Source: Anaerolineae bacterium
GTDB lineage: Bacteria > Chloroflexota > Anaerolineae > Anaerolineales > E44-bin32
Direction: 5' to 3'
Length of the DNA stretch: 64,000 bases
NCBI GenBank assembly: GCA_030605795.1
Contig: JAUWHR010000005.1
Location: forward strand, 338 to 64,337
The stretch's first letter is position 1; each line of letters starts with the position of its first letter. A program made the translations under genes and the position numbers. The notes beneath the pieces are model-generated. The model saw nothing but the letters and a program-made list of their open reading frames with translations. It was not told the origin of the DNA and searched no databases. Positions 15,531 to 35,127 of this stretch are shown here, in pieces.

Positions 15531-15559
15531 TTGACTTGGAGACAATACTGGTGTAGTAT
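15531..15559 (+). promoter_or_regulatory. Sigma70-like promoter upstream of the ROK regulator
   Basis: TTGACT (15531-15536), 17-nt spacer, TAGTAT (15554-15559). Confidence 0.4.
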
Positions 15560-15585
15560 TAAAAAGAGAATTATTTTATAAAGGT

Positions 15586-15601
15586 GAATAATTAATTATT
15601 C
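15586..15601. promoter_or_regulatory. Perfect 16-bp palindrome (candidate operator)
   Basis: GAATAATT|AATTATTC, between the putative promoter and the ROK gene start at 15657. Confidence 0.4.
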
Positions 15602-15656
15602 CTAAGCAATTTTCTTCAGCAAAAGACCAAACCTCTCCCAGAAAAGTTGCAAATTC

Positions 15657-16904
15657 ATGCCAAGAAGGCAGACCCTTGCAGGCAGTAATAGCAGCACCGT
15701 CAAGTCGCACAATCTGAGGGCCATACTGCTAACACTTCTCCAGCGCGAACGTGTTTCGCGCGTCCGCCTAGCTCAAATGACTGGGCTCTCGACGACAGCC
15801 ATCACCAACTTGGTCTCCGAGCTCTTGGGACAGGGTATCGTCGTTGAAGAGGGGACAGAGACCCCCAAGCATCGGAGAGGGGTCGGACGACCCCGAACGG
15901 CACTGCGATTAATGCCGGAAGCCCGTTATGCTGTTGGCATTCATGTTGGCGTTGGCAGTATCCGCGTGGCAGTGACTGACCTGCGCGCTCAGCTTTTGTG
16001 CCACCTTTCCCTAGCTCACCCTTTGGATAGATCACCTGAAGAGGTAGTGGTCGAAACAGCCACACTGGTTCATAAAGCAATCACCGAGAGTGGTGTGGAT
16101 CGCCAGTATGTCGTAGGGGTAGGAGTGGGTGCGTCTGGCTTGGTCGACACGGACACCGGCGTCAACGTGGTGGCGCCTAATTTGGGTTGGCGTGATGTGC
16201 CGATTCGGGATTGGTTTGCCAAGCGTCTGAGGCTACCGGTTTGTGTGGACAACAATGTCCGTGCAATGGCCCTTGGTGAGGCTATGTTTGGTGCCGGGCA
16301 GGATGTTCATTTGCTGGCATTCGTCTATGCCCGAATAGGAGTAGGAGCGGGTTTTGTAGTAGGTGGCCAACTCTATCGTGGCAGTGGGGCAGGGGCGGGA
16401 GAGATCGGCCATACGACGATCATTCCCGATGACGGGGATCCATGCCGGTGCGGCAATACCGGCTGTCTTGAAACCCTCGTATCCGAACCGGCCATCGTGC
16501 GTTTGGCAGAGAAGTTGGTCAAGCGGGATACACAAGGTATCCTGGCATCGTACTGTAGAGGTACTGACGGGATTCGCGTCGAGCAGATCTTCCAAGCGGC
16601 GCGTGCCGGGGATACCGCCGTCCGTGCGTTGCTCGATGAACGAGCCCGTTACATGGGAATCGCGCTAGCAAACCTAGTTAACATCTTCAATCCGGAATTA
16701 ATCTTATTGGGAGGAGTTCTTGCTCAAGGCAAGGATCTACTGTTGCCAGTTATTGAGACAACGATGTGCCAGCGAGCCTTTGCCAACCTGGGCGAACGGG
16801 TGCGGCTGCAGGCAACTAGCTTTGGCCAACAAGTCGGAGTGGTCGGAGCTGCGGCCCTGGCCTTGAACACCTTCTTTTACCAGCAATCTAGCCAGGGCAT
16901 CTGA
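15657..16904 (+). CDS. ROK-family transcriptional regulator
   Basis: 415 aa. N-terminal winged HTH (RVRLAQMTGLSTTAITNLVSEL). ROK sugar-kinase-like body with zinc motif CRCGNTGCLE. Confidence 0.85.
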   Translation: MPRRQTLAGSNSSTVKSHNLRAILLTLLQRERVSRVRLAQMTGLSTTAITNLVSELLGQGIVVEEGTETPKHRRGVGRPRTALRLMPEARYAVGIHVGVGSIRVAVTDLRAQLLCHLSLAHPLDRSPEEVVVETATLVHKAITESGVDRQYVVGVGVGASGLVDTDTGVNVVAPNLGWRDVPIRDWFAKRLRLPVCVDNNVRAMALGEAMFGAGQDVHLLAFVYARIGVGAGFVVGGQLYRGSGAGAGEIGHTTIIPDDGDPCRCGNTGCLETLVSEPAIVRLAEKLVKRDTQGILASYCRGTDGIRVEQIFQAARAGDTAVRALLDERARYMGIALANLVNIFNPELILLGGVLAQGKDLLLPVIETTMCQRAFANLGERVRLQATSFGQQVGVVGAAALALNTFFYQQSSQGI

Positions 16905-16916
16905 GGTAAACGGGTT

Positions 16917-18260
16917 ATGCAATCGACAGATATGAGACTGGGCCTGGTACCACTGGCCAGGAATATGTTCGATATAGCCCTGGCAACGAAAGTGACGGCC
17001 CAGGTGCGCTCTCGATTAGAATCGGTCGGCTTTTCGCTCGCCGGGCCAAGTGCGTTGGTCACCAGCTTGGATGAGGCCAAGAAAGTCGCCCAACAACTGG
17101 CAGACAACCCGCCTGATCTGCTGCTGGTTCTGCAGGCCACCTTTGCCGATAGCACAATGGTAATGAGCCTGGCGGAGATGGTAGACGCTCCGCTCTTACT
17201 GTGGGCAGTTCCGGAAGCCGGCGCCGGTGGCCGATTGCGCCTGAACTCGTTTTGTGGGATTAACCTGGCCGCCCACGCGCTGAGACGGGGCGGCCATCAC
17301 TATGACTATGTGTACGCTGCACCAGACGATCCTGTGGTGGTGGAAAAAGTACGCGCCCTGGCCCTGGCCGGGTGTGCCCGACGTCTGTTGTGTCAGGCCA
17401 GAGTCGGACGAGTGGGCGAAAACCCAGCCGGGATGAATAGCTGCCAATTTAACAAGGAAGCCTTGATACGCCAGTTTGGCCTGGAGGTGGTCCAAATAAG
17501 CTTGGAACAGGTTTTCCAGGCTGCCCGAGCGGCGGATCCACAGGAAGTTGAAGCTGTATTGAAGAGCCTGAGTACAAAACTGGACGGTCTGCATGAGTTG
17601 GACCAGACTGCCCTGCGCAGGACGTTGAGCAGTTACGTGGCCCTGCGCCAACTTGTAGAGCGACAGCAATTGGATGGTTTAGCCGTGCGCTGTTGGCCCG
17701 AGTACTTTACCGAACTGGGCTGCGCTGCCTGTGGTGCGATGTCTATGCTCAGCGATGAACTGACCCCCTGTAGTTGTGAAGCGGACGTCAACGGCACGAT
17801 CACCCAGCTCATCCTCCAATGGATCAGTGGTGAGCCGGCCTTTGGCGCCGATATCGTGTCGATGAATGTGGAACAGGACGCCATCGTCCTGTGGCATTGT
17901 GGGTTGGCTCCACTCTCCATGGCCGATCCGTCGGTGCGTCCCCGGGGGACGATTCACTCCAACCGCAACCTACCCCTATTAATGGAGTTCCCGCTAAAAC
18001 CTGGCAGGGTTACCATCGCTCGTCTGAGTGAGGCGACCGGGGAATATCGAATGGTCATCGGTAGTGGTGAGATGCAACGAACGCCAATGAACTTTTCTGG
18101 CACGTCGGGAGTATTGCGTTTTGACCGGTCAGCCAGCGATGTGCTCGATACCATCATAACAGAAGGGTTAGAACATCACCTCTCTTTGACCTACGGTGAT
18201 CATGTACCAGTCGTTTTGGCCTTATGCAGTATGTTGGAATTGCCTGTTCTACACCTATAG
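16917..18260 (+). CDS. L-fucose/L-arabinose isomerase-family aldose-ketose isomerase
   Basis: 447 aa. MRLGLVPLARNMFD..DLLLVLQATFADS..LLLWAVPE..RLNSFCGINL pattern typical of FucI/AraA-like family proteins (by eye). Confidence 0.7.
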   Translation: MQSTDMRLGLVPLARNMFDIALATKVTAQVRSRLESVGFSLAGPSALVTSLDEAKKVAQQLADNPPDLLLVLQATFADSTMVMSLAEMVDAPLLLWAVPEAGAGGRLRLNSFCGINLAAHALRRGGHHYDYVYAAPDDPVVVEKVRALALAGCARRLLCQARVGRVGENPAGMNSCQFNKEALIRQFGLEVVQISLEQVFQAARAADPQEVEAVLKSLSTKLDGLHELDQTALRRTLSSYVALRQLVERQQLDGLAVRCWPEYFTELGCAACGAMSMLSDELTPCSCEADVNGTITQLILQWISGEPAFGADIVSMNVEQDAIVLWHCGLAPLSMADPSVRPRGTIHSNRNLPLLMEFPLKPGRVTIARLSEATGEYRMVIGSGEMQRTPMNFSGTSGVLRFDRSASDVLDTIITEGLEHHLSLTYGDHVPVVLALCSMLELPVLHL

Positions 18261-18323
18261 GCAAGGAAAGGAGAAGAAGTGGATATTGGAGAGAGAAAGT
18301 GAACTCCCTTATTCGGTGCCAGA

Positions 18324-18339
18324 CTACATTCGAATGTAG
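18324..18339. promoter_or_regulatory. Perfect 16-bp palindrome upstream of the ABC transporter genes
   Basis: CTACATTC|GAATGTAG, 30 nt upstream of the SBP start codon. Confidence 0.4.
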
Positions 18340-18369
18340 CTTGGCTGACAATCATGAGAGGAGAACCCT

Positions 18370-19665
18370 ATGAAAGCGCGTAACCTATTTGTCTTATCAA
18401 TGGTCATGTTGCTGTTGGCTGCTTGCAAGCCAGCTGTAACACCGACGGAGGCTCCACCGCCTGAGGGTGTCGAGTTGCGGTTCACGTACTACGCGGACGG
18501 CAACGAAGCTGATGAGATGCAGACCATTCTGGATCGTTTCATGGCTGAAAACCCCAGCATCACAGTCGTGCTCGACGTCGTACCCTACCAGACAATTGAC
18601 GAACAGTTGCCTGTGCAGGTGGAAACCGGGGAAGGCCCAGACATGGCGCGCATCACCAATTTTGGCGCTTACCGCGGTAAGTTGCTTGACCTGCGTCCAT
18701 ACCTGTCTGACCCAGGCTACTTCGAGAGCAATTTCCCGACGCCTGTGTTGGCAGCCATGCGGGCTGAGGGCGACGCCTCTGGCTTGCACGGCTTCCCGGA
18801 CAGCCTGACTGTGACCGGTCCGTACGTCAATAAGACTCTGTTCGATCAGGCGGGGATTGAGCTACCCGGCGATGCTTCCTGGGAGGAGTGGACCGAGCTG
18901 ACCCAGCAGGTAGCCGAAGCGACCGGCGTGCAGTACGCCATCTCGATCGACCGCACCGGTCACCGCTTCGCCGGCCCGGCGATGAGCATGGGTGCGACCT
19001 TGATCGATGCCAGCGGCAACTTCACGGTCGACACCCCTGGCTTCCGCGATTTCGCCGAAATCCTCATGGGCTGGCACGATGCAGGCATCACGCCGTCTGA
19101 GGTGTGGTTGATCGGCGACAGTCTCAACAGCTGCATCGACTTCTTCAAGAGCGGTGATCTGGTGATGTGCATGTCGGGGAGCTGGCAGATCAACGGCGTG
19201 GCCGGGGATGTGGGCGACGCCTTCGACTGGGTGGTCGTTCCCAACCCGACCGGTGCTGGCGGGAGCACGGGTGTGGCCGGTGGCGCGGGTGTGGTGGCCT
19301 TCGCTGACACCGAGCACCCCGAGGAAGTCGCTATGCTGATGGAGTTCCTCATCCAGGCGGAGAACTACGGCGCTTACTCGGCCGGCACCTTGTCGTTGCC
19401 TGCCCAGACGGAAGTCGCTTCCACCGGTGTGGACTTCGAGACCGACAACGCCTCAGTTCTCGGCGCGTTGTCAGCTTACACAGCGGAGATCCCCAAGCTG
19501 CAAGACCAGGCGGTGGCTTTGAACGTCCACCCGTTCGCCTTCGCCTACTACCGCAACAGCGCCAATCGTATCGCCCAATATCTCACTAGCGAGCTGTCGC
19601 TTGATGAAACCCTGCAACGCTTGCAACAGGATATCGACGACGCGATCGCTGAAGCAGGACAGTAA
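18370..19665 (+). CDS. Sugar ABC transporter substrate-binding lipoprotein
   Basis: 431 aa. Lipoprotein signal MVMLLLAAC. Family-1 solute-binding features (PDMARITNFG, GFPDSLTVTGPYVNKTLF). Confidence 0.85.
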   Translation: MKARNLFVLSMVMLLLAACKPAVTPTEAPPPEGVELRFTYYADGNEADEMQTILDRFMAENPSITVVLDVVPYQTIDEQLPVQVETGEGPDMARITNFGAYRGKLLDLRPYLSDPGYFESNFPTPVLAAMRAEGDASGLHGFPDSLTVTGPYVNKTLFDQAGIELPGDASWEEWTELTQQVAEATGVQYAISIDRTGHRFAGPAMSMGATLIDASGNFTVDTPGFRDFAEILMGWHDAGITPSEVWLIGDSLNSCIDFFKSGDLVMCMSGSWQINGVAGDVGDAFDWVVVPNPTGAGGSTGVAGGAGVVAFADTEHPEEVAMLMEFLIQAENYGAYSAGTLSLPAQTEVASTGVDFETDNASVLGALSAYTAEIPKLQDQAVALNVHPFAFAYYRNSANRIAQYLTSELSLDETLQRLQQDIDDAIAEAGQ

Positions 19666-19675
19666 TCCGATTTCT

Positions 19676-19715
19676 TTTACCATAGGGGCGCATTATGATG
19701 TGCCCCTATGGTAAA
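19676..19715 (+). promoter_or_regulatory. Intercistronic 14-bp perfect stem-loop
   Basis: TTTACCATAGGGGC-12 nt-GCCCCTATGGTAAA directly after the SBP stop. Plausibly an mRNA-stabilising or attenuating hairpin. Confidence 0.55.
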
Positions 19716-19727
19716 GATTATTTGATT

Positions 19728-20750
19728 ATGTCTGTACGCTCACTTTTCCTACCTATCAAATCAGTTGGCACTTTTATCAACTGTATTTTCTCTTCCATAC
19801 TAGATTTCTTCATTTCTGCCTTCGACGTTGTGTTTAGCATCCTGCAAAGATGGATTGGCATTCGCGGCATGCCTTATGTTTTCGCACTGCCGAATCTGCT
19901 CATATTTGGCATTTTTATCTTGTTTCCTATGCTGCTCAACTTTGTATATGCGTTCACGGGTGGCATAGAATTTTTCCCCGATCGGCGACCTTGGGTTGGG
20001 ACGGCTAACTTTGAACAGCTCTTGACCTGTGAAGATTTCATCGATCCAAATACCTGCTACGAGGATTTATTTTGGCGTGCTGTCTTCAACACATCAGGCT
20101 ATGTTATTTCACAAGTCGGTCTTATGGTGATCATTTCACTCATAACAGCACTGGTGCTTAACCGCAATATCAAGGCGCGGGGTTTCTTCCGTAGTGTTTA
20201 TTTCTATCCTGTACTCCTGTCGCCGATTGTTGTTGCACTTATTTGGAAATGGATTTTGCAGGAAAATGGTCTGCTTAACGGGAATATCGCTGGTTTGGGC
20301 TACGACAAGGTGCCCTTTATGGTCAATGCCCAATGGGCTCGTTTTTGGGTGGTGATTATCAGCGTGTGGGCGTTTATGGGGTTCTATACGTTGATTTTGC
20401 TGGCCGGTTTGCAGTCGATTCCATCGGAACTGTATGAAGCCGCTAAAATCGACGGTGCAAATGATTGGCAGTTGTTCCGTTGTATCACTTTGCCGCTCCT
20501 GATGCCCACTATGCTGGTTGTGCTGGTGCTGTCCTCGATTCGAGCAGTGCAGATATTCGACGTGGTATTTGCTTTTACGGGGGGTGGTCCGGGCACTGCA
20601 ACGCTATACCTCGTGCAATACATATATGAAAAAGGGTTCTCCAGCCCGTCGAAACAGTTCGGTCTCGCCGCAGGTGCCTCGTTACTCATGGCTGGGACGT
20701 TGATCGTATTGACACTGATTCAACTGCTTTTACGTCGTGAGGAGGCTTAG
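19728..20750 (+). CDS. Sugar ABC transporter permease (MalF/UgpA-like)
   Basis: EAA loop YEAAKIDGANDWQLFRCITLPLL. Multiple TM segments. ATG 19728 (after the hairpin) preferred over track start 19695. Confidence 0.85.
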   Translation: MSVRSLFLPIKSVGTFINCIFSSILDFFISAFDVVFSILQRWIGIRGMPYVFALPNLLIFGIFILFPMLLNFVYAFTGGIEFFPDRRPWVGTANFEQLLTCEDFIDPNTCYEDLFWRAVFNTSGYVISQVGLMVIISLITALVLNRNIKARGFFRSVYFYPVLLSPIVVALIWKWILQENGLLNGNIAGLGYDKVPFMVNAQWARFWVVIISVWAFMGFYTLILLAGLQSIPSELYEAAKIDGANDWQLFRCITLPLLMPTMLVVLVLSSIRAVQIFDVVFAFTGGGPGTATLYLVQYIYEKGFSSPSKQFGLAAGASLLMAGTLIVLTLIQLLLRREEA

Positions 20751-20756
20751 GTAGAT

Positions 20757-21809
20757 ATGAGCGCAGTTACAACATTTCTAGCACGTAGATGCGGCCACAC
20801 GAAACTAAACATCACAGACATCATCACCTACCTATACTTGTTTTTCGGTGTGGTTATCATGTTTGGACCTATATTATGGCTGGTGTTGTCTTCGTTTAAA
20901 ACTGCAGCTGAAGTCATCAAATTCCCCCCTCGTCTGTTACCCTATCGCCAAGACACCATTGTGGTCGAAGGGTATGACGATCCGCTTCCCTTGTTTGAAG
21001 TCACGCTTGATGACGGGTCCACAATCAAACTGGCGCAGGTGCGCCGCATTGGCCTGGAAGGGCAGATGATTGATCCAGCCAATCCTGGCGAAATCATAAA
21101 AGTCCACATCAACGACCGCAAACCGATCGAGTCTGTCGTCTTTGGTTTGGAAAATTACATTGAAGGCGTGCAAAGTTTTAACTTTGGAAGGTATCTCCGT
21201 AACAGTGTAGTTGTAACTGTATTTGCGACGATCTTGACGCTGCTTATCAACAGCATGGCAGCCTTTGCACTGAGCAAATACCGATTCCGAGGACGTACGA
21301 CGATCTTTCTTATCATGATCGGCACGCTCATGGTGCCCCTCTCTGTTGTTCTTGTGCCCGTGTTTTTGGTAATCACGAAGGTCGGCTGGAATAACAACCT
21401 GTTGGGTGTGATTGTGCCAGGTGCAGCCACGCCCACAGGCGTTTTCTTACTGCGGCAGTACATGCTCACCATCCCTGATGAGTTGATCGATGCGGCGCGT
21501 ATTGATGGCGCTAGCGAGTGGCGCATTTACTCACAAATTATTCTGCCGCTTGCACGCCCTGCTCTGGCCGTGTTGACAATCTTTTCGGTGATGTGGCGCT
21601 GGAACGACTTTCTCTGGCCCCTCATTGTATTAAGTCGTAGCGAGTTCTTCACCCTCCAAGTCGGCCTCAACTCATTCCAAGGTGAACTGAACGTCCAATG
21701 GCATCTGATCCTTGCCATGACGATGCTGACGTTGTTGCCGATTACGGTTGTGTTCGCCTTCTTGCAAAGGCATATCACAACGGGTATTGCCACAACGGGC
21801 TTAAAGTAA
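20757..21809 (+). CDS. Sugar ABC transporter permease (MalG/UgpE-like)
   Basis: 350 aa. EAA loop DAARIDGASEWRIYSQIILPLARPAL. An unusually long periplasmic insert after TM1. Confidence 0.85.
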   Translation: MSAVTTFLARRCGHTKLNITDIITYLYLFFGVVIMFGPILWLVLSSFKTAAEVIKFPPRLLPYRQDTIVVEGYDDPLPLFEVTLDDGSTIKLAQVRRIGLEGQMIDPANPGEIIKVHINDRKPIESVVFGLENYIEGVQSFNFGRYLRNSVVVTVFATILTLLINSMAAFALSKYRFRGRTTIFLIMIGTLMVPLSVVLVPVFLVITKVGWNNNLLGVIVPGAATPTGVFLLRQYMLTIPDELIDAARIDGASEWRIYSQIILPLARPALAVLTIFSVMWRWNDFLWPLIVLSRSEFFTLQVGLNSFQGELNVQWHLILAMTMLTLLPITVVFAFLQRHITTGIATTGLK

Positions 21810-21829
21810 ACGACCATAATCAAAACCAG

Positions 21830-23008
21830 ATGGCAGAAGGCATTTTTTCAAATCCCATTTCCATTCCTGTAGAGACAAAGAACGGCTCATTGTTGGCCGA
21901 GGAGAACCGCTTTATCTGCTTACCTGGGTGTGGTCTCTGCTGTTCCTATCGAGTTCTTCTGACCGAGGAGGACAAGCAGAGGTTGATGGCCGCCGGGTAT
22001 GTGAAGAAGGCATCGGAACTATGGGAGACGACCGCCAACAGCGGAACAGCCCTTTGTCGCACGCCAGATTTTTGTCTCTTCCTAGACCCGCAACAAAGGT
22101 GCGGCGCGTATGACTTCCGCCCGGAACAATGTCGCACCTATCCGTACCTGTGGACCAGTTACCTTCGAAAGGAACTGGATGTGGATTTAAGTTGTCCAGG
22201 GCTGGGGCAAGGTGAAAGTACTCCACTGGCATTGCACCAAATTCTGGGTGAGGGCTCGCCACGACTGTCACCGCTGGATGTAGCGATTGGGGAAATTCAT
22301 GCTTTGCTACGCTCCCATGGTTGCTACGCTACACCGGATGCACTTGTGGCAATGGGAATACAATGCATCGAGGAGCTCACTAAAAGTTGGACATCAAACC
22401 GCCATCGCGGGACAATGAGCCTATATGTGAGCCAACTGTCACCGCTACTCGAGAATGCTGAGAAAGGGGATGTTGCCACTAAACTATGGTCAGGTTTTCG
22501 CGTCATCCCTTGTTCCGTTGAGCAACTACTCGCAGACGCGAACTTCATAGGGCGGCATTTTTCGCGACCGCGCTGGAATACACGGCTTGAAAGCGATGGC
22601 TCGGTTGTGTTGTATCGATTCTGGATCTTGGATGGTATTCTTCATGTGAAGGATCGGGGCGAAACGCAACGGGAAATCTTACTAGCTGAAATCGAGGCGA
22701 TCGCCTGGAAAGCAGAGGCGCTTGCCACCCGCCGAGCATATCTCTATCGCTGGTTGAATCGGCAACTGTCGTTGCGCCTAGCGTACAATATGACTGTGGC
22801 CAACTTGATCCAGGGTAGTCATACAACGCTCTGCTACCTCGAATTCATCCTGGAGATTGACCACCGGCTGGTGGTGCTAGCCTCGGCGTTGGCACGAGCC
22901 GGTGGAAAGGATGAGATAGATCGTGAAGTCGCAATTGAGGCCATCCGCGGCAGCGATGGCTTGTTGCGGGCCTGGTGCGAAAGCGCCCGATTGGGCGTAA
23001 CAAACTGA
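21830..23008 (+). CDS. YkgJ-type Cys-rich (CxxCxxCC) zinc/iron-chelating domain protein with long C-terminal extension
   Basis: CLPGCGLCCSYRVLLTEEDKQRL..CRTYPY resembles the UPF0153/YkgJ domain. ATG 21830 preferred; track start 21698 lies inside the permease gene. Confidence 0.5.
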   Translation: MAEGIFSNPISIPVETKNGSLLAEENRFICLPGCGLCCSYRVLLTEEDKQRLMAAGYVKKASELWETTANSGTALCRTPDFCLFLDPQQRCGAYDFRPEQCRTYPYLWTSYLRKELDVDLSCPGLGQGESTPLALHQILGEGSPRLSPLDVAIGEIHALLRSHGCYATPDALVAMGIQCIEELTKSWTSNRHRGTMSLYVSQLSPLLENAEKGDVATKLWSGFRVIPCSVEQLLADANFIGRHFSRPRWNTRLESDGSVVLYRFWILDGILHVKDRGETQREILLAEIEAIAWKAEALATRRAYLYRWLNRQLSLRLAYNMTVANLIQGSHTTLCYLEFILEIDHRLVVLASALARAGGKDEIDREVAIEAIRGSDGLLRAWCESARLGVTN

Positions 23009-23017
23009 CAAATTGAA

Positions 23018-24211: not shown

Positions 24212-24241
24212 CCTAATACGTAAACGGGAAGGAGTTTAGAC

Positions 24242-25258: not shown

Positions 25259-25281
25259 CAGCCGCCAGCTGGTTGGTTGAC

Positions 25282-27551: not shown

Positions 27552-28353
27552 AATGGGTAAGAAAGCATGGGAAGGCGTGTTCAGCATGCCTCAACCAGGA
27601 CGCAGCATGAAGCCGCGCACCAACGGCTTCACGATGGTGTTGGACAAGGGTCTGGGCCGTTATCAAACCGAGGACCTTATGGCGACCGCCTCTGACTATA
27701 TCGACTTTGTGAAGTTCTCCTTCGGCACGTCGGCTTTCTATGACGAGCAGGTCCTACGCGAGAAGGTCGAGATCGTGACCGGCGCTGGCGTGGGCATTTA
27801 TCCCGGTGGAACGTTCCTGGAAGTGACCGTGTGGCAGGATAGTTATGCTGACTATCTGCGGCGCGCTAAGGAGTTGGGCTTCACTGCGATCGAGGTATCC
27901 GACGGCACATTGCAGATGTCAGACGAGGTGCGCGCCGACTGCATCAAGCGCGCCCTGGATGCCGGCTTCGAGGTCATCACCGAGGTGGGCAAAAAGAGTC
28001 CTGACGAGGAGGTGGCCGTGGCCGAGATGCACCGGCTCATTGCCCACGATCTGGACCTGGGGGCGCTCCTGGTCATCGTCGAGGCCCGCGAGGCCGGCAA
28101 GGGCGTGGGCATCTTCGACAAGTCCGGCGCGGTGAACGAGAGCCAGGTGGATCAGATTATCTCCGGTGTGGATGACCTAGACAAGCTGATGTGGGAAGCG
28201 CCGATCAAGAACCAGCAGCAGTACCTGATCTTGCGCTTCGGCAATAATGTCAACCTGGGGAATATCCCCACCACCGACGTGCTGGCCTTGGAGGCCTTGC
28301 GCCAGGGGTTGCGCGGAGACACACTCAAGCGGGCGTTGCAGCAGGGGTTGTAA
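27544..28353 (+). CDS. comA: (2R)-phospho-3-sulfolactate synthase ComA family
   Basis: Near full-length by-eye match to methanogen ComA: VLDKGL, DYIDFVKFSFGTSA, YPGGTFLE, GFTAIEVSDGT, EVGKK, EAREAGKGVGIFDK, NLGNI, LRQGLRGDT. The start may be ATG 27553. Confidence 0.85.
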   Translation: MIKMGKKAWEGVFSMPQPGRSMKPRTNGFTMVLDKGLGRYQTEDLMATASDYIDFVKFSFGTSAFYDEQVLREKVEIVTGAGVGIYPGGTFLEVTVWQDSYADYLRRAKELGFTAIEVSDGTLQMSDEVRADCIKRALDAGFEVITEVGKKSPDEEVAVAEMHRLIAHDLDLGALLVIVEAREAGKGVGIFDKSGAVNESQVDQIISGVDDLDKLMWEAPIKNQQQYLILRFGNNVNLGNIPTTDVLALEALRQGLRGDTLKRALQQGL

Positions 28354-28364
28354 CCACGTAGTGT

Positions 28365-28404
28365 GTATTGCGTGTTCCTTTACGCAATGTGCACTACGCA
28401 ATAC
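28365..28404. promoter_or_regulatory. Cluster of three TATTGCGT/ACGCAATA motif copies upstream of pfk-like gene
   Basis: GTATTGCGT (28365-28373), ACGCAAT (28382-28388) and ACGCAATAC (28396-28404). The outer copies form an inverted repeat. Confidence 0.4.
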
Positions 28405-28416
28405 GGAGCATAGTTC

Positions 28417-29661
28417 ATGAGCAAACCGTTACCCGACATCCTCGTTGTCGGCCAATCTGGCGGCCCAACGCCGGTGATCAACGCCAGCCTGGCGGGCGTG
28501 ATTAGTGAAGCGCAGAAGCACGATTGCTTCAGCGGCATCTACGGCCTGGTGCACGGTATCGAGGGCGCACTCAAGGAAGAGCTGCTCGATCTGAAGACTG
28601 AAACGGCCGCCAACCTCGAACTGCTGGCCCACACCCCGGCCTCGGCACTGGGATCCTGCCGTCACAAGTTATCCGACGACGACTATGACCGCATCCTGGA
28701 GGTCTTTGGCGGCCACAACGTGCGGCATTTCATCTACATCGGCGGTAACGACTCGATGGACACCTGTCACCGCATCGCGCAAGTGGCCGCTACATCTGGC
28801 TACGATATGCAGGTGATGGGTGTGCCCAAGACCATCGACAACGACCTGGCCTTCACTGACCACTGCCCCGGCTACGGTAGCGCAGCCCGCTTCCTGGCGC
28901 TGGCGACCCGTGATACTGGCCGCGACCTAGAAGCGATGGCGACCTTCGATGATGTGACTATCCTGGAGGCGATGGGACGTAACACCGGGTGGCTGACCGC
29001 TGCTTCTGTGCTGGGCAAGGAAACGGAGGATGAGGCCCCCCATCTTGTCTATGTGCCCGAGGTGCCTTTCGATGAACAGTGCTTCTTGGATGACGTGACC
29101 CGCGTCCACGACCGGTTGGGGTGGGTATTCGTTGTCGTCAGCGAAGGGATCCGGGATGCCGACGGCCAGTTTATCGGACAGCACAAGCTGAGAGGTGGCG
29201 GCAGCGATGCCTTTGGGCACGTCGTCCATTCCCTAACGACCGGTGTGGCTGCTTACCTCACAGACGTAGTCAGGGAAGGGTTAGGCTTACAAGCCCGTTT
29301 TCTACGTCCCAGCCTGATCGAGCGGGCGATGAGCGCCTGCGTATCCGAAACCGATCGGAAGGAGGCATGGCAGGTAGGCGTAGATGCTGTCACACACCTA
29401 GTTGCGGGTCGCAGCGGTTACATGGTCACGCTTGAACGCGTCTCGGATGATCCATATCATTGGGAAACCGGGCTAGCCTCATTGGATGAGGTCGCCAATG
29501 CCGAAAAGCTTCTCCCCAGTGATTTTATAAATAATGCCGGGGATATGCCCACCCAGCGCTTTAGGGATTATGGGCTACCGCTGATCGACGGCCCTCTATC
29601 GCACCTGGCCCGGTTGAGAGGGACACGGGTTCTAAAAAAAGTTAATCAAGGTACAGCTTGA
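28417..29661 (+). CDS. PfkA-family phosphofructokinase (ATP- or PPi-dependent, undetermined)
   Basis: 414 aa. GQSGGPTPVINAS, IGGNDSMDT and PKTIDNDL motifs. Confidence 0.85.
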   Translation: MSKPLPDILVVGQSGGPTPVINASLAGVISEAQKHDCFSGIYGLVHGIEGALKEELLDLKTETAANLELLAHTPASALGSCRHKLSDDDYDRILEVFGGHNVRHFIYIGGNDSMDTCHRIAQVAATSGYDMQVMGVPKTIDNDLAFTDHCPGYGSAARFLALATRDTGRDLEAMATFDDVTILEAMGRNTGWLTAASVLGKETEDEAPHLVYVPEVPFDEQCFLDDVTRVHDRLGWVFVVVSEGIRDADGQFIGQHKLRGGGSDAFGHVVHSLTTGVAAYLTDVVREGLGLQARFLRPSLIERAMSACVSETDRKEAWQVGVDAVTHLVAGRSGYMVTLERVSDDPYHWETGLASLDEVANAEKLLPSDFINNAGDMPTQRFRDYGLPLIDGPLSHLARLRGTRVLKKVNQGTA

Positions 29662-29768
29662 TTAATTAGGAATATCAATGCCTTCTTCTTACTCCCCCGT
29701 TGCTAGGGGTCATATGACCCAAATATAGACCCCCCCTAGCAGAATATAGCAATCGGAGGCAGCTAACC

Positions 29769-30812
29769 ATGTCAACAGAATATTCGCTTGGTGATTACAA
29801 ATTCAACCTGAAAGCTTTCTTCCCCGCTCGCATCTTTGAGATGATCACCGACATCCGAGTGGATAAGCCAGAGATCATCGAACAGCAAGCGCTGACCCGC
29901 AAACGTCGTCCGCGCCTGACGCGGGATGGCAAGCTCACCATTCTGGCGGCCGATCACCCCGCTCGTGGGGTCACTGTTATTGGAGACGACCCGTTCAAGA
30001 TGGGAAACCGTCACCAATACCTGGGGCGCATCCTGCGGGTGCTGATCGCCACCGATTTTGATGGTTTCATGAGCACAGCTGACATGATCGAGGACTTGAT
30101 CATTGTGGATTACCTGGTGCAAAAAGGTGGCGGACCTTCCTTCCTGGATGAAAAGGTGCTGATTGGCTGTATGCAGCGCGGAGGTGTCGCCGGAGTGGTC
30201 GGCGAACTAGACGATCGCTTCGGTTCGTATTCCGCCGAATCCATCGCCCGCTTCCGGCTGGATGGCGGCAAAATGATGTTCCGTTTTGTCCCCGACGACG
30301 AGCGCACACTGTGGCAGATTGACTACTGCTCTAAAGCCATCACCGACCTTTATCGTTATAACCTAGTACCCTTCGTTGAGCCGCTGCGCATGGATTACGT
30401 GGACGGCAAATGGGTCAGCAAGAACACAGCTGACGAGCTGGTCAAGCTGGTCGGAGTGATCGGCGGCATGGGCGATTCGTCACGCTGCACATGGATGAAA
30501 CTCCCCTACTGCCAGGATTTCCACCGGGTCACAATGGCGACAACCCAGCCCATCCTCATGTTGGGTGGGCCTTCCAAGGAGGATCCACGACATACTTATC
30601 GAGACTTTGCTGCCGGCATGGCAACCCGCAACAACGTGCGCGGCGCGCTAGTAGGTCGCAACGTCTCTTTCCCCGGATTTGATGACCCGGCTGCCATAGC
30701 CCAAGCAATCAACGAGATTGTCCACCGGGGGATTTCCGCCGACGAAGCCATTGAGGTAACATTAGGTCACCGGGATAAGAAAATAGATTTCCTGACAAGT
30801 TACATAACATAA
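29769..30812 (+). CDS. Class-I-aldolase-like (beta/alpha)8 protein (Cgl0159/DeoC-LacD-like family)
   Basis: 347 aa. LTILAADHPARG, CMQRGGVAG, ELDDRFGSY, DGGKMMFRF, FVEPL and WMKLPY match my recollection of the Cgl0159-family TIM-barrel pattern. Confidence 0.6.
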   Translation: MSTEYSLGDYKFNLKAFFPARIFEMITDIRVDKPEIIEQQALTRKRRPRLTRDGKLTILAADHPARGVTVIGDDPFKMGNRHQYLGRILRVLIATDFDGFMSTADMIEDLIIVDYLVQKGGGPSFLDEKVLIGCMQRGGVAGVVGELDDRFGSYSAESIARFRLDGGKMMFRFVPDDERTLWQIDYCSKAITDLYRYNLVPFVEPLRMDYVDGKWVSKNTADELVKLVGVIGGMGDSSRCTWMKLPYCQDFHRVTMATTQPILMLGGPSKEDPRHTYRDFAAGMATRNNVRGALVGRNVSFPGFDDPAAIAQAINEIVHRGISADEAIEVTLGHRDKKIDFLTSYIT

Positions 30813-30823
30813 AAGTAGAATGT

Positions 30824-30835
30824 GCGTATTGCGTA
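30824..30835. promoter_or_regulatory. Fourth copy of the TATTGCGT motif, upstream of the GH4 gene
   Basis: GCGTATTGCGTA at 30824-30835, in the 109-nt gap before 30922. Confidence 0.35.
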
Positions 30836-30921
30836 TCTCGAGCTTTACTCAATAAGAAAGGTGGAACTTAAACTAGCGACGAAATCCCGGCGATAAACCT
30901 CACAAACAATCGAGGTGAACA

Positions 30922-32313
30922 ATGGTAAGAACGCCCAAAATCGTCTGTATCGGCGCAGGGAGCGCTATATTCGGCCTGAGCAATATGGCCAGCATCGTTC
31001 GCAGCCCACGGTTGCGCGGCTCGGAATTAGTGCTAGTAGACATTGATGAAGCTGGTCTAAAAACGATGACCAGACTTGCCCAGATAATGAACGAGTCCTG
31101 GGACGCAGAAATGACAATTTCCGGCACGACCGAACGCGAGGAGGCGCTTCCCAACGCCGACTTCGTCGTGGTCTCGGTGCAGGTAGGTCAGCGGGAAGAG
31201 GTATGGGAGTTGGATTGGAAGATTCCCCTCAAACACGGCGTGCGCCAGCCCTACGCTGAGAACTCAGGACCGGGGGCCTTTGCCCACACAGCTCGCAACG
31301 CTCCCCTGATCCTCGCCATCGCACAAGATATGGAACGGCTGTGCCCAGATTCTTGGTTCCTCAACTTCACCAACCCCTTGATCCGGTTGACCTGGGTTGT
31401 GCAGCGCTATACCAAGATCAAGGTCGTCGGGCTCTGTCACCAATTGTTTTGGGCATATGCGATGGCCGCGACGGTGCTGGCAGATCGCTGGGGGCTGCAA
31501 ATTCCTGAGGGTTTTCATGTCCACACCAACTATGACAACGAGGCGAACCTCATTCCGGTGATCCTTGAAGGCCATAAACATATGGACATCAAGGCAGCGG
31601 GGCTAAACCACTTTTCGTGGGTGTACGATATCCGCGACAAAGAGACCGGAGAGGATCTTTACCCGCACCTGCGCGAGAGATGGCTCCAACATTACCGGCG
31701 AGACTTCGAACCACTGACGCGCGAGATGTTCGAGATCTTCGGCTTGATGCCCACCGCGGGCGACGCGCATATGTGTGAGTATCTTCCCTGGACACACGAT
31801 CCCCTCACCAAGCCCTGGGAAAAGTACAACCTAACCTTGCAGAGCTGGGAAGGCAACCGACGACGCCGCGCCGACCGCATTGCAAAGGCAGAAGCCATCG
31901 TGGCCGGGGAGCAGCCGGTGGATCAACTGAAAGATGCCATCAGCGAGGGTGTGCCGGAGATTGTTGAGGCGATCACCTTCAACGACAACCGCTACTACCA
32001 CCAACTTAACCTTCCGAACAACGGCCTGATTCCCAACCTACCCGACGACGCCATCGTCGAGGTGCCGGGCGTGATCTCCGGCTTCGGCATCAAGGGGTTG
32101 GGGGTCCCGCCTCTACCGGAAGGAATCGCCGAGCTCTGCCGTCGCGAGCTGGCGCTCAGCTCGCTTGTCGTAGACGCCGTGGTTCATGGCGACCAAGAGT
32201 TGGCTTTGCAGGCCCTGATGCTTGACCCAATAATGAACGACATTGACCGAGCAAGAGCCATCCTGGATGACTTCCTGATGACTTTCGCCGAATACCTTCC
32301 GCAATTCGCATGA
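30922..32313 (+). CDS. GH4-like NAD(+)/metal-dependent glycoside hydrolase
   Basis: 463 aa. N-terminal Rossmann KIVCIGAGSAIFG, LVLVDID, FLNFTNP and VGLCHQ, as in family 4 glycosidases. Confidence 0.75.
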   Translation: MVRTPKIVCIGAGSAIFGLSNMASIVRSPRLRGSELVLVDIDEAGLKTMTRLAQIMNESWDAEMTISGTTEREEALPNADFVVVSVQVGQREEVWELDWKIPLKHGVRQPYAENSGPGAFAHTARNAPLILAIAQDMERLCPDSWFLNFTNPLIRLTWVVQRYTKIKVVGLCHQLFWAYAMAATVLADRWGLQIPEGFHVHTNYDNEANLIPVILEGHKHMDIKAAGLNHFSWVYDIRDKETGEDLYPHLRERWLQHYRRDFEPLTREMFEIFGLMPTAGDAHMCEYLPWTHDPLTKPWEKYNLTLQSWEGNRRRRADRIAKAEAIVAGEQPVDQLKDAISEGVPEIVEAITFNDNRYYHQLNLPNNGLIPNLPDDAIVEVPGVISGFGIKGLGVPPLPEGIAELCRRELALSSLVVDAVVHGDQELALQALMLDPIMNDIDRARAILDDFLMTFAEYLPQFA

Positions 32314-32319
32314 CCTTGA

Positions 32320-33597
32320 ATGGAGGTCGTGTTGGAGTTCCGCATTCCCTACGGTAAAAACCACTTGAGCTTCCTTCTCCCCGATGGTTTGGAAATCGAG
32401 GTGGTGGAACCAGCAGAGACTCCCGCGGTTCCTGATCCCCTCGGTGAGGTAGAAGCAGCGCTTGCAGTACCAGTGGGCAGCGTCGACCTGATGGCTTTCC
32501 GCGGTGCCCGTTCTGTCGCCATCGCCATAAACGATAAGACCAGGCCGGTCCCCAACCAGCATCTCCTACCGCCTATGCTGGCGCGTCTTGAGGATCTCGG
32601 GTTGACGCCGAAAGCAATCCGTTTTATTGTCGCTACCGGCGTTCATTCCACGATGTCGCCGGAGGAATTTTTTAGCGTCCTCCCAGAGGAAATCCTCACT
32701 CGATATCTTGTAGGCTGTCACGACGCCGACGATCGCGGGAACCTGGTGCATCTCGGCACAACTTCGCGCGGCACTCCAGTGTGGGTCAACCGGTCCTTCG
32801 TGGAGGCCGATCTGCGGATTGTCGTGGGTAACATCCAACCACACCAATTCCAGGGCTTCACTGGTGGGGTCAAGGGTGCCGCCATCGGGTTGGCTGGGCG
32901 CGAGACCATCAATCACAACCACGCCATGATGGTCGATCCTGGCGCACTATTGGGGCACTTCGCCAATAACCCGGCTAGGCAAGATGTGGAAGAGATCGGC
33001 CAAAGGATCGGGGTTCACTTCGCCTTGAATGCTGTTCTGAACCAGGATAAGGAGATCGCGGCTGTCTTCGCCGGGGAACCGCGCGCAGTGCTGTTGAGAG
33101 GCATCCCCGTGGTCCGCAGACTTAGCCAAGTGCCTGTCAGTGAACCTTTCGATCTCGTTATCGCTTCACCCGGGGGTCACCCTGAGGACATAAACCTGTA
33201 CCAGTCGCAAAAGGCACTGGCCCACGCGGCCTTGGTCACCAGAGATGGCGGCACGGTGATCTTGGTCGCGGCCTGTCCCGAGGGGGTGGGAAGTATGAGC
33301 TACGAGCGGTGGGTGGAGGGAATGACCTCCCACGAATCCGTCATCCAGCGGTTCAAGCAAGAGGGCTTCCGCGTGGGACCGCATAAGGCCTTCCAGATCG
33401 CCAGAGACGCTGCGCGGTTGCGCGTGCTGGTAGTCTCCCAGATGCGCGCCAACTTGGTGAGACGGCTGCTGTTGACGCCGGCAAGCAGCCTCGACGAGGC
33501 AATATCCCAGACTCTGGGCACTATTCGGCGAGAGGCGCGCGTGGGTGTAATGCCTCGGTCTAGCGCCACCATACCGACGCTGGAAAAGATAGCGTGA
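32320..33597 (+). CDS. LarA-family (nickel-pincer cofactor) 2-hydroxyacid racemase/epimerase homolog
   Basis: 425 aa. INDKTRPVP, ATGVHSTMSPEE, QPHQFQGFTGGVKG and INHNHAMM align by eye with L. plantarum LarA (SDHTRPVP, ATGFHRPST, ESHFFAGFSGGRKS, MANHS). Confidence 0.7.
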   Translation: MEVVLEFRIPYGKNHLSFLLPDGLEIEVVEPAETPAVPDPLGEVEAALAVPVGSVDLMAFRGARSVAIAINDKTRPVPNQHLLPPMLARLEDLGLTPKAIRFIVATGVHSTMSPEEFFSVLPEEILTRYLVGCHDADDRGNLVHLGTTSRGTPVWVNRSFVEADLRIVVGNIQPHQFQGFTGGVKGAAIGLAGRETINHNHAMMVDPGALLGHFANNPARQDVEEIGQRIGVHFALNAVLNQDKEIAAVFAGEPRAVLLRGIPVVRRLSQVPVSEPFDLVIASPGGHPEDINLYQSQKALAHAALVTRDGGTVILVAACPEGVGSMSYERWVEGMTSHESVIQRFKQEGFRVGPHKAFQIARDAARLRVLVVSQMRANLVRRLLLTPASSLDEAISQTLGTIRREARVGVMPRSSATIPTLEKIA

Positions 33598-33615
33598 AAC
33601 CAAGGAGCACTTCCA

Positions 33616-35127
33616 ATGGCGAAGTACATCGCTGCATTGGACCAAGGGACGACCAGCACCCGCCGTATTATTTTTGATCACGACGGGACGGTGGTCAGCG
33701 TCGCCCAGAAGGAACACAACCAGATCTATCCTCAACCTGGCTGGGTTGAGCACAACCCAATCGAGATTTGGGACCGGACGCAGGAAGTGATACGGGAAGC
33801 GACCGCAAAAGCGGACGTGCTACCTGGCGACATCGCCGCGGTGGGGATCACCAACCAGCGTGAAACAGCCGTCGTATAGAACAAGAATACTGGCCAACCC
33901 TATTTCAACGCAATCGTCTGGCAAGATACCCGTACCAAGAATATCTGCGATGAACTGGCAGCCGAGGGCGGCCAGGACCGGTTCCGCAGCAAGGTTGGCC
34001 TGCCTTTGATGGCATACTTCTCTGGCCCCAAGATTAAATGGATTCTTGACAACGTAGATGGGGTTCGTCAGGCGGCGGAGAGAGGGGAAGCTCTCTTTGG
34101 CAACATCGACACCTGGGAGATGTGGTGGCTGACGGGTGGGCCTGACGGCGGTGCCCACATCACGGATGTGACCAACGCCAGTAGAACGATATTGATGAAC
34201 CTGGAAAACCTGGATTGGGACGACGAAATCCTTGATACTCTGGGAGTTCCGCGTCAAATGCTGCCCCGTATCGTACCTTCCAGTGATCCAGACATCTGGG
34301 GAAACACGCCGAAGAATGGACCATTCGGAGATATAATCCCCGTCTGTGGGGATCTGGGTGATCAACAGGCTGCCTTGGTCGGCCAAACCTGCTTCAACCT
34401 AGGGGAGGCCAAGAACACCTATGGCACAGGTTGCTTCATGCTCCTCAACACTGGCACCTCCCCGGTGCCATCTAAAAGCGGCCTGCTGACCACCGTCGCC
34501 TATGGTATTGCCGATCAACCTACGGTCTACGCTCTTGAAGGCTCCATCGCCATCACCGGCGCGCTAGTCCAATGGCTGCGCGACAACCTGGGCTTGATCA
34601 GCAAGTCGGTCGAAATCGAGGACTTGGCCAGGACGGTGGAAGACAACGGGGGCATCTACTTAGTTCCGGCGTTCTCTGGACTTTTCGCCCCCTATTGGCG
34701 GTCGGACGCCCGTGGTGTCATCGTGGGGTTGACACGCTACGTCAACAAAGGCCACTTCGCGCGCGCTGCGCTCGAGGCCACAGCCTATCAGACACGTGAG
34801 GTGTTGGATGCGATGGAGAAAGATACCGGCGTAGCATAGAAGGCCCTAAAGGTTGATGGCGGTATGGTCTACAATGAGCTACTCATGCAGTTCCAGGCTG
34901 ACATACTGGGTGTCCCAGTCATTAGACCGGAGGTCGCTGAGACTACATCGTTGGGCGCCGCTTACTCAGCTGGGCTGGCTGTGGGTTTTTGGGACAACCT
35001 GGAAGACCTGCGGTCCAATTGGCAGGTTGGCAAGACCTGGGATCCGAAGATGGAGGAGGGGGAGCGTGAGCGGCTTTACCAAAGCTGGCTGAGGGCCGTC
35101 GCCCGCACCTTCGACTGGGTTGAGTAG
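33616..35127 (+). pseudogene. glpK: Glycerol kinase with two in-frame TAG codons
   Basis: [26 protein letters not shown] and [16 protein letters not shown]. One frame throughout. TAG 33877-33879 sits where GlpK has Trp (..ETxVW). TAG 34837-34839 is just before ..LKVDGG. Confidence 0.85.

Follow-up and report, generated by a model that had tools for sequence, protein, structure and literature searches.

A candidate sulfoquinovose operon of Anaerolineae in which sulfolactate phosphorylation and a reversed ComA reaction are predicted to release sulfite

Sulfoquinovose, a sulfonated sugar of plants, is produced at about 10 billion tonnes per year (PMC12890257), and its breakdown is usually described as the work of two organisms, because sulfoglycolysis ends with the excretion of a C3 sulfonate. 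Published alternatives for the upper part of the route employ an isomerase (SqvD/SftI, PF02952) and a sugar kinase (SqiK, PF00365), or a transaldolase (SqvA, PF00923), and in Chloroflexi and Thermotogae the so-called extended sulfo-TAL clusters carry the (R)-sulfolactate sulfo-lyase SuyAB at a place equivalent to that of the kinase and ComA genes discussed here (PMC9594981). The present analysis concerns a locus at positions 15657-35127 of a 64,000-nucleotide stretch of DNA from an Anaerolineae bacterium (GenBank assembly GCA_030605795.1, contig JAUWHR010000005.1, positions 338 to 64,337), referred to below as the window. A preliminary description of the window had stated that it held no hallmark of the described routes; this was not sustained, since a FucI-family isomerase (PF02952) and a PfkA-family kinase (PF00365) are encoded in the locus. 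The upper half is accordingly read as a variant of sulfo-EMP2, because these two families define that route (PMC9594981). For the locus as a whole, we estimate a probability of roughly 60% that it is a catabolic operon for sulfoquinovose, or its glycosides, in which sulfite would be released through phosphorylation of sulfolactate and a reversed ComA reaction. The basis of this reading is genomic, and its substrates are inferred throughout.

In the proposed route, an ABC system would import the substrate and a family 4 glycoside hydrolase (GH4) would cleave the glycoside to sulfoquinovose. An SftI/SqvD-type isomerase would convert sulfoquinovose into sulfofructose, a pyrophosphate (PPi)-type PfkA-family kinase would form sulfofructose-1-phosphate, and a Cgl0159-like aldolase would split this compound into dihydroxyacetone phosphate (DHAP) and (2S)-sulfolactaldehyde. 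The aldehyde would then be oxidised by a GAPDH-like and PGK-like pair, through an acyl phosphate, to (2S)-sulfolactate with the gain of one ATP, and a LarA-type racemase would convert the acid into its 2R form. A P-loop kinase would phosphorylate the 2-hydroxyl of sulfolactate, with ATP or PPi as the donor, after which ComA, running in reverse as an enolase-like lyase, would cleave 2-phosphosulfolactate into phosphoenolpyruvate (PEP) and sulfite. The sulfite would probably be exported by YeiH, while PEP would yield pyruvate and ATP through pyruvate kinase or pyruvate phosphate dikinase (PPDK), so that all six carbons would be used. The desulfonation branch would be neutral in ATP, because PEP gives back the ATP spent by the kinase; the sulfolactaldehyde branch would therefore net one ATP, and the yield from the sugar would be close to that from glucose.

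The locus consists of 16 co-directional open reading frames (ORFs) listed in a single array on the + strand, with intergenic gaps of at most about 110 bp and two overlaps of 4-8 bp (PGK/kinase and kinase/ComA). The preliminary description had counted fourteen tightly spaced genes on one strand; the array and its short gaps or overlaps stand, and the difference in number arises because the ABC importer was counted there as one gene. Scans of the locus proteins against Pfam and NCBIfam, which are the source of the family calls given here, bore out every gene family that had been named. The arrangement is not a product of chance, because it recurs in many independent metagenome contigs, the closest of which (Logan SRR25383458) is 98-99% identical. 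A scan of the locus for promoters and terminators found nothing usefully beyond the shuffled expectation, apart from a hairpin after the solute-binding protein gene.

The central result comes from a survey of 103 loci with relatives of the P-loop kinase: 13 stem from species-representative genomes (all metagenome-assembled genomes, MAGs, of Anaerolineae/Chloroflexota), 80 from metagenome contigs retrieved with a profile of a distant clade, and the others from look-ups of exact proteins. The close Anaerolineae clade is 57-98% identical to the kinase of the window, and the distant clade, which includes Deltaproteobacteria MAGs, is 39-47% identical. Across both clades, which share only 40-45% identity, ComA lies directly downstream of the kinase on the same strand in every locus whose sequence extends 300 bp or more beyond the kinase gene (90 of 90), at a median gap of 9 bp. 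In 13 of the 14 Anaerolineae-clade loci with room for it, YeiH lies no more than 3 kb upstream of the kinase, and LarA follows downstream of ComA in 7/17 close-clade and 5/26 distant-clade loci with room. Chance adjacency, for which the preliminary description had foreseen relatives commonly lacking comA and yeiH, is not what the survey displays, and the co-location of bacterial comA with type II gap, pgk, pfkA and larA, for which it had proposed a neighbourhood survey, recurs in related loci. A linkage this constant would be hard to explain unless the product of the kinase is the substrate of ComA, or the substrate of the kinase is the product of ComA, with phosphosulfolactate as the shared compound. 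The core of the earlier proposal, namely sulfolactaldehyde oxidation, inversion by LarA, phosphorylation and a presumed lyase action of ComA, thereby gains strong comparative support from this pairing and from the module swaps described below.

In the distant clade, the kinase-ComA pair is accompanied by TctABC-type (TTT) uptake systems, D-2-hydroxyacid or ComC-family dehydrogenases, LarA, and aldehyde:ferredoxin oxidoreductase (AOR), as well as by consumers of PEP or pyruvate, including subunits of 2-oxoacid (pyruvate):ferredoxin oxidoreductase, ADP-forming acyl-CoA synthetase and PPDK. This context fits the uptake of a C3 sulfonate and a flow from PEP to acetate, and not the synthesis of coenzyme M. 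In one locus (L052, 1-15500), PPDK stands directly upstream of the pair, which is surrounded by an altronate-dehydratase-like C-terminal domain, enoyl-CoA hydratase, CoA-transferase subunits, a MaoC dehydratase and AOR; a CoA-dependent route could feed sulfolactate there, for example from 3-sulfopropionate. Elsewhere, in L001/L007, a pyruvate dehydrogenase (PDH)-like E1 alpha/beta-E2(-E3) complex is encoded directly after ComA (L001 11995-15318).

Around the invariant core, the Anaerolineae loci linked to sugar genes exchange whole modules. The window, L004, L006, L100/L101, L108 and the P0035 locus, as well as L001/L007, which carry no sugar genes, have type II GAPDH (GAPDH2) and PGK genes either in the interval from YeiH to the kinase or immediately behind LarA. 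The aldehyde-oxidising slot is occupied by an aldehyde dehydrogenase resembling succinate-semialdehyde dehydrogenase (SSADH) in L014 and the P0092 locus, and by AOR in L010. Because three unrelated aldehyde-oxidising systems interchange at one step, the slot points to the conversion of sulfolactaldehyde into sulfolactate. Similarly, the phosphofructokinase (PFK) and Cgl0159-like barrel genes follow ComA in the window, L005, L006, L100 and L108 and lie upstream of YeiH in the P0092 locus, while a small FSA/TalC-type transaldolase (TAL) follows ComA in L004, L010 and the P0035 locus; the PFK-Cgl0159 pair never occurs together with TAL in the surveyed loci. The GH4 glycosidase is present in most loci (including L004, L005, L006, L098 and L100) and is replaced by a GH31 enzyme in L010. 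These alternations, of PFK-Cgl0159 with TAL and of GH4 with GH31, parallel the published alternatives of sulfo-EMP2 and sulfo-TAL. SftI-like isomerases, ROK regulators and the same ABC components recur in L004, L010 and L014, and LarA follows in nearly all sugar-linked loci.

The P-loop protein (26547-27551, +; 334 aa) has no Pfam or NCBIfam match and carries the Walker A motif GKGGVGKT. One database holds 252 of its homologs and a second one 134 representative clusters; none of them bears a name or a Pfam domain, and all originate from MAGs or metagenomes, mostly of Anaerolineae/Chloroflexota with some Deltaproteobacteria; the exact sequence of the window protein was absent from the contig index searched. 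Residues H127, K150, K276 and R301 and the glycines and lysines of the P-loop are invariant among family members that share only 23-45% identity. An AlphaFold2 (AF2) model built from 25 homologs reached a predicted local distance difference test score (pLDDT) of 82 and a predicted template modelling (TM) score (pTM) of 0.84, and a Foldseek search of the Protein Data Bank (PDB) with this model returned ATP- and GTP-dependent phosphoenolpyruvate carboxykinases (PEPCK) at the top (E values as low as 5e-8, TM near 0.5 over the query), followed by HprK/P (2e-4). A sequence search of the PDB returned P-loop noise only. Among 23 family members, weak matches were obtained to PF07475 (Hpr_kinase_C; 3/23, best E 2e-3) and PF01293 (PEPCK_ATP; 6/23, best E 7.5e-4); the window protein itself matches neither, and the similarity is at the level of the fold. 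The modelling thus supports, at the fold level, a PEPCK/HprK-like protein that belongs to neither Pfam family, and the earlier label of an HprK-like kinase is upheld in this sense. PEPCK and HprK/P phosphorylate either a hydroxyl or the O2 of a C3/C4 acid, and the protein is predicted to be a sulfolactate 2-kinase. The family memberships, the fold of this kinase, its constant pairing with ComA and the swaps of modules constitute the observed part of the case.

The enzymes predicted to act between the aldehyde and the kinase deserve separate consideration. The GAPDH2 homolog (24242-25258, +) exceeds the cut-offs of NF003251 (400 bits, cut-off 185) and TIGR01546 (342 bits, cut-off 233), matches the Pyrococcus horikoshii GAPDH 2CZC at E 5.5e-86 (292 bits) and retains the catalytic SCNTT. 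The archaeal-like PGK homolog (25282-26550, +; PF00162 4e-111, 372 bits), whose best PDB match is the P. horikoshii PGK 2CUN, is always paired with GAPDH2. Both deviate in short motifs: PSHH in four of four solved archaeal GAPDH enzymes is P[SA]HQ in the window and all locus copies covered, and the HLGRP of bacterial PGKs, HQGKP in P. horikoshii, is HQGDP in the window and six other locus copies covered, while the other arginine-containing PGK motifs are retained. By analogy with the E. coli and yeast enzymes, we take the altered positions in GAPDH2, PGK and PFK (HH to HQ, R/K to D and R162 to D) to be those that bind the C3 or C6 phosphate. The change from HH to HQ was considered as a feature specific to these loci and rejected, as P[SA]HQ is present in 116 of the 116 best GAPDH2 homologs with a readable motif, including those of Moorella, Lentisphaerae and Omnitrophica; Moorella and others among them have no ComA. 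The motif variants are therefore no evidence for a sulfonate substrate, because homologs without ComA share them.

Downstream of GH4, the LarA-superfamily racemase (32320-33597, +) exceeds the cut-off of NF052595, the malate racemase LarAH5 (549 bits, cut-off 462). The candidate motifs ATGVHS and PHQFQGFTGGVK (PHQ...GGVK), read by eye and not from an alignment, may supply the catalytic His/His pair and the lysine to which the cofactor, a nickel-pincer nucleotide (NPN), is tethered. Sulfolactate is malate with a sulfonate in place of a carboxylate, and the protein is predicted from its sequence to be an (S)/(R)-sulfolactate racemase. Sulfolactaldehyde and sulfolactate derived from sulfoquinovose are 2S (D series), and ComA (EC 4.4.1.19) and SuyAB handle the 2R form, so an inversion at C2 is needed.

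A GAPDH2-PGK-LarA trio, with the HQ motif in GAPDH2 and HQG[DG] in PGK, also occurs without kinase and ComA. In Moorella glycerini (GCA_002995805.1; L104 10001-13560), it precedes a PDH-like E1 alpha/beta-E2(-E3) complex (13577-18261); in L105 (8674-15455), it stands amid Iol-like genes, a split transketolase and malic enzyme. Because the trio occurs without ComA, it represents a pre-existing module, which we read as oxidising a 2-hydroxy-aldehyde with an anionic substituent at C3, with a gain of ATP and subsequent inversion at C2. The substrate in L105 is plausibly malate semialdehyde, and the two loci suggest an undescribed ATP-yielding route from malate semialdehyde through D-malate to L-malate. 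The complexes that follow the Moorella trio and the ComA gene of L001/L007 hint at a dedicated 2-oxoacid dehydrogenase tied to these modules.

The predicted roles of GAPDH2 as a phosphorylating sulfolactaldehyde dehydrogenase and of PGK as an ATP-forming sulfolactoyl-phosphate:ADP phosphotransferase rest on context. This part of the earlier proposal is retained on the strength of the gene neighbourhood, with the qualification that the module is found without ComA and holds nothing specific to sulfonates. Desulfonation by kinase and ComA could also be real while GAPDH2 and PGK serve ordinary lower glycolysis, acting on glyceraldehyde 3-phosphate from the DHAP (or fructose-6-phosphate) branch, with sulfolactaldehyde oxidised by an enzyme encoded elsewhere. 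Both proteins pass curated models and keep their catalytic residues, and their motif changes are seen in homologs outside sulfonate contexts, as this account would expect. Nevertheless, the two genes occupy the slot between YeiH and the kinase that an aldehyde dehydrogenase or AOR holds elsewhere, no other aldehyde-oxidising gene is present in the window, and neither triose-phosphate isomerase nor a mutase or enolase is encoded alongside them. Moreover, the pair travels with LarA even in loci unrelated to sulfonates, which argues against glycolysis and for a module that converts a 2-hydroxy-aldehyde into a 2-hydroxy-acid, and the aspartate in PGK, at what we assume to be the 3-phosphate-binding Arg/Lys position, would disfavour 3-phosphoglycerate. 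We regard this alternative as unlikely.

ComA (27553-28353, +), whose start overlaps or abuts the stop codon of the kinase gene, matches PF02679 (1.9e-91, 306 bits) and exceeds the cut-off of TIGR03849 (348 bits, cut-off 280), with E 1e-65 to the Methanocaldococcus jannaschii ComA (1QWG). A lyase role yielding PEP and sulfite is predicted for it, the direction being inferred from gene context. The membrane protein YeiH (23039-24211, +; PF03601 6e-67) falls under the cut-off of TIGR00698 (140 bits), an NCBIfam model named 'YeiH family putative sulfate export transporter'. It is predicted to transport sulfite or a sulfonate, and both sulfite export and sulfolactate import are possible. Directly upstream of YeiH, in the window and likewise in L001/L007, L004 and L100, lies a CxxCxxCC (YkgJ-like) protein (21830-23008, +), of which the N-terminal part only matches PF03692 (4e-10); this domain is joined to a C-terminal region of about 240 aa without a family match.

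The same three genes could be read in the opposite sense, with ComA as a synthase forming phosphosulfolactate from PEP and sulfite, the P-loop protein passing the phosphate on to ADP (or to phosphate, giving PPi), and YeiH exporting sulfolactate, so that sulfite would be detoxified or sulfolactate made with the PEP phosphate conserved. ComA genuinely belongs to the synthase family, minimal YeiH-kinase-ComA loci exist without catabolic neighbours, relatives of HprK/P can run phosphorolysis, the overall reaction is exergonic by a rough estimate, and the PPDK beside the pair in L052 is reversible. This scheme, however, leaves no role for LarA or for the aldehyde oxidisers between YeiH and the kinase, none for the sugar importer, isomerase, kinase, aldolase and glycosidase of the same operon, and none for the TTT uptake systems of the distant clade. 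The expected partners ComB, ComC and ComDE are not encoded in the window, and a ComC-family gene is present in few of the related loci; furthermore, secondary phosphate esters donate poorly to ADP. Synthesis in place of cleavage is therefore quite unlikely in our judgement.

The genes assigned to the upper part of the route surround this core. At the 5′ end stands a ROK regulator (15657-16904, +; PF00480 1.6e-59 and HTH_24) with an N-terminal winged helix-turn-helix, Mlc/NagC-like but under the equivalog cut-offs, which is likely the repressor of the locus; a copy with 61% identity adjoins SftI in L014. The FucI-family isomerase of SftI/SqvD type (16917-18260, +; PF02952) has NF048012 (SftI) as its sole NCBIfam match (2e-94, model positions 6-440 of 443) and homologs in L010 and L014, and its sequence predicts the conversion of sulfoquinovose into sulfofructose. 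A lipoprotein solute-binding protein (SBP; 18370-19665, +; SBP_bac_1/8) and two permeases (19728-20750 and 20757-21809, both + and BPD_transp_1) are, by sequence, a CUT1-type ABC importer, and no ABC ATPase gene is encoded in the locus. The same trio is found in L004, L010 and the P0035 locus. Right after the SBP stop codon comes a hairpin (19675-19716) whose 19-bp stem looks perfect. As it and the permease ORF's first ATG overlap, the permease start was placed at 19728; the hairpin probably serves to stabilise the mRNA or as an attenuator.

The sugar kinase (28417-29661, +; PF00365 5e-48) exceeds the cut-off of PRK14072 (482 bits, cut-off 273) and carries the motifs GGNDS and PKTIDND, whose residues we take as diagnostic of PPi dependence. 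It thus belongs to the PfkA family, as described earlier, and more specifically to its PPi type. An aspartate stands at the position of R162 in E. coli PfkA, presumably the 6-phosphate ligand. On a family-level match only, the protein is predicted to be a PPi-type sulfofructose 1-kinase analogous to SqiK. The adjacent Cgl0159-like TIM barrel (29769-30812, +; PF22649 5e-65) matches the uncharacterised structure 3FOK (E 1.3e-49) and, weakly, class I fructose-bisphosphate aldolase and ADH synthase. It is predicted to be a sulfofructose-1-phosphate aldolase from its position beside PFK and its exchange with TAL. A single-sequence AF2 run on this protein gave no confident fold (pLDDT 34). An assignment to the YihT aldolase family found no support, as an hhalign comparison of orthologs with E. 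coli YihT aligned only a 9-column GxLxGR motif at a probability of 0.2%. The GH4 protein (30922-32313, +), with both GH4 domains (PF02056 5e-50 and PF11975 3e-41), is predicted from its sequence to be an NAD+/Mn2+-type sulfoquinovosidase; its nearest solved structures, the LplD alpha-galacturonidase 3FEF and 6-phospho-glucosidases, all belong to enzymes that take substrates with an anionic C6.

That nearest solved GH4 structure, a galacturonidase, would also suit a locus that degrades a non-sulfonated or other anionic sugar, for example by a uronate- or inositol-derived route to malate through GAPDH2, PGK and LarA, with kinase, ComA and YeiH as an unrelated insert. LarA belongs formally to a malate-racemase family, L105 combines the trio with malic enzyme and Iol-like genes, and UxaC and UxaE are encoded near L004. 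Yet kinase and ComA lie inside the operon with translational overlaps and hold the same place in many contigs, the isomerase matches SftI only, the exchange of transaldolase and PFK is typical of sulfoglycolysis, and neither malic enzyme nor another malate-consuming gene is present in the window, which makes this account very unlikely. Reverse sulfoglycolysis, that is, the biosynthesis of sulfoquinovose from PEP and sulfite through reversible PPi-PFK, aldolase, PGK/GAPDH and ComA, is hardly credible: although all central enzyme types are reversible in principle and ComA would run in its known direction, the SBP-dependent importer, glycoside hydrolase and ROK repressor are catabolic features, variant loci use irreversible aldehyde dehydrogenases, the kinase would run against ATP, and in known cases sulfoquinovose is always made via UDP-sulfoquinovose synthase (PMC12890257).

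Several observations weigh against the reading of the locus as a sulfoquinovose operon. In the upper part, the isomerase scores 317 bits against an SftI equivalog cut-off of 700, and the SBP matches generic sugar SBPs only in the PDB (E 1e-11 or weaker), with no special likeness to any solved sulfoquinovosyl-glycerol binder. The GH31 enzyme of L010 (6544-8715) is nearer to the YicI alpha-xylosidase than to YihQ and lacks two of the three sulfonate-binding residues of YihQ (W304 to F and Y508 to F); because this triad fails at two positions, the enzyme is unusable as proof of sulfoquinovoside specificity, and it could be a sulfoquinovosidase of another kind or have some other glycoside as its substrate. 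In roughly half of the Anaerolineae loci only YeiH, kinase and ComA are present, and such minimal loci are uninformative on the sugar. In the lower part, the HQ and HQGD variants are common to a wider bacterial GAPDH2/PGK clade that has LarA and no ComA. LarA requires LarB, LarC and LarE, and none of these cofactor genes is present in the window. The P-loop protein family comes wholly from uncultured organisms, and, to our knowledge, ComA is known only as a synthase. By a rough estimate from the hydrolysis energies of PEP and 2-phospho acids, the lyase step is uphill by about +20 kJ/mol under standard conditions and would become feasible at micromolar sulfite and PEP. The opposite flux, from PEP, sulfite and ADP to sulfolactate and ATP, is also feasible on paper, and for this reason the direction of ComA rests on gene context.

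Two groups of side observations concern the edges of the locus. The last gene, a glycerol-kinase-like gene of the FGGY family (glpK; 33616-35127, +), shows FGGY_N and FGGY_C on three ORF pieces that form a single frame with two in-frame TAG codons (33877-33879 and 34837-34839) and no frameshift. By its sequence it is a pseudogene unless the amber codons are read through, which corrects the earlier plain listing of glpK. The first TAG presumably stands at a tryptophan position, by analogy with E. coli GlpK. On the independent contig L100, the GH4 ortholog likewise has an in-frame TAG (14595-14597) where the window has CAG. Nonsense mutations of recent date, sequencing artefacts or amber read-through could each account for these codons. 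In addition, genes of mobile elements flank the locus at 562-1299, 7740-8316, 12484-13815, 38982-40139, 47637-48725 and 56149-60821 of the window, comprising RadC, a group II intron RNA, a truncated Tn3 transposase, a tyrosine recombinase, a DnaB-like helicase, a relaxase-like protein and a type IV secretion system coupling protein. The GC skew is strongly negative across 46-60 kb, and in L100 a single-stranded DNA-binding protein and RadC follow immediately after LarA. The pathway may be carried by an integrative conjugative element.

Beyond the single locus, the kinase-ComA pair could represent a widespread and unrecognised way for anaerobes to cleave the C-S bond of sulfolactate, by phosphorylation and enolase-like elimination. 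In Anaerolineae it would be joined to a sulfo-EMP2-type upper part and to ATP-harvesting GAPDH and PGK, so that one organism could ferment sulfoquinovose with carbon and ATP yields like those from glucose; it would thereby also account for numerous ComA genes of bacteria that are unconnected with coenzyme M. We place this broader proposal at even odds. If the reading of the locus is right, it would add a new desulfonation chemistry independent of oxygen, of a glycyl radical and of SuyAB, a first catabolic role for ComA, and a first function for a protein family so far labelled hypothetical. New candidate activities would also follow for the type II GAPDH/PGK pair, the LarA racemase, GH4 and the Cgl0159-type barrel, and the kinase-ComA pair would offer a simple marker of sulfolactate-derived sulfite in anoxic sediments rich in Anaerolineae and Desulfobacterota.

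A January 2026 review of sulfoquinovose catabolism has no such route (PMC12890257). The searchable full text, a body of literature that leaves most subscription journals outside and therefore gives no proof, yielded neither a catabolic role of phosphosulfolactate nor a sulfolactate kinase, nor did it connect sulfolactaldehyde with GAPDH/PGK. Sulfolactate is likewise not mentioned in the LarA literature retrieved, and PMC11770544 contains no term starting with 'sulfo'. Judged from sequence, the new parts would be the aldolase and glycosidase of the upper half and the whole of the lower part, with one enzyme family and one reversed enzyme role.

Compared with known systems, the upper half stands closest to sulfo-EMP2 (SqvD/SftI, SqiK and class II SqiA; Bacillus urumqiensis and Megamonas), which passes through the same predicted intermediates from sulfoquinovose to DHAP and sulfolactaldehyde and employs the same isomerase (PF02952) and kinase (PF00365) families (PMC9594981). 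The locus differs in having a Cgl0159-like aldolase (PF22649), whereas a class II SqiA (PF01116) was not found in it; in having GH4, whereas a GH31 of YihQ type was not found; and in a kinase that looks PPi-dependent; it also has neither SqvB nor a YihR mutarotase. The C3 sulfonate excreted in sulfo-EMP2 is here predicted to be desulfonated.

With the extended sulfo-TAL clusters carrying SuyAB, the locus shares the phylum and the same logic of coupling sulfoglycolysis to the cleavage of sulfolactate into sulfite and a C3 metabolite, with use of all the carbon, and the related loci L004, L010 and P0035 use a transaldolase as those clusters do. No gene of the SuyAB (altronate/galactarate dehydratase) family was found among the 16 locus genes by the Pfam scans. 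Unlike the SuyAB route, the C-S bond would be cleaved after phosphorylation, the product would be PEP and not pyruvate, and the configuration would be changed by LarA-type racemisation instead of by a pair of dehydrogenases.

The ComA step of coenzyme M synthesis (EC 4.4.1.19) and the synthesis of sulfolactate by Bacillus YitD involve the same family and the same metabolite, (2R)-phosphosulfolactate. The direction predicted here is the opposite one, a kinase takes the place of the phosphatase ComB as partner, and, in contrast to coenzyme M synthesis, ComC and ComDE are not encoded in the window and the context is catabolic, in non-methanogenic bacteria. The kinase, in turn, shares with PEPCK and HprK/P the fold and a constellation of histidine, P-loop Lys-Thr and acidic residues, but at about 10-12% identity, at half the size of PEPCK and outside any HPr or regulatory context.

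The lower part would finally be a step-by-step chemical analogue of lower glycolysis, with a sulfonate in place of the 3-phosphate and with homologs of GAPDH and PGK as its enzymes. Where glycolysis employs a mutase, a kinase would here spend ATP to form the 2-phospho acid, after inversion at C2; and where enolase removes water, the leaving group would be sulfite and the eliminating enzyme ComA, which lies outside the enolase superfamily.

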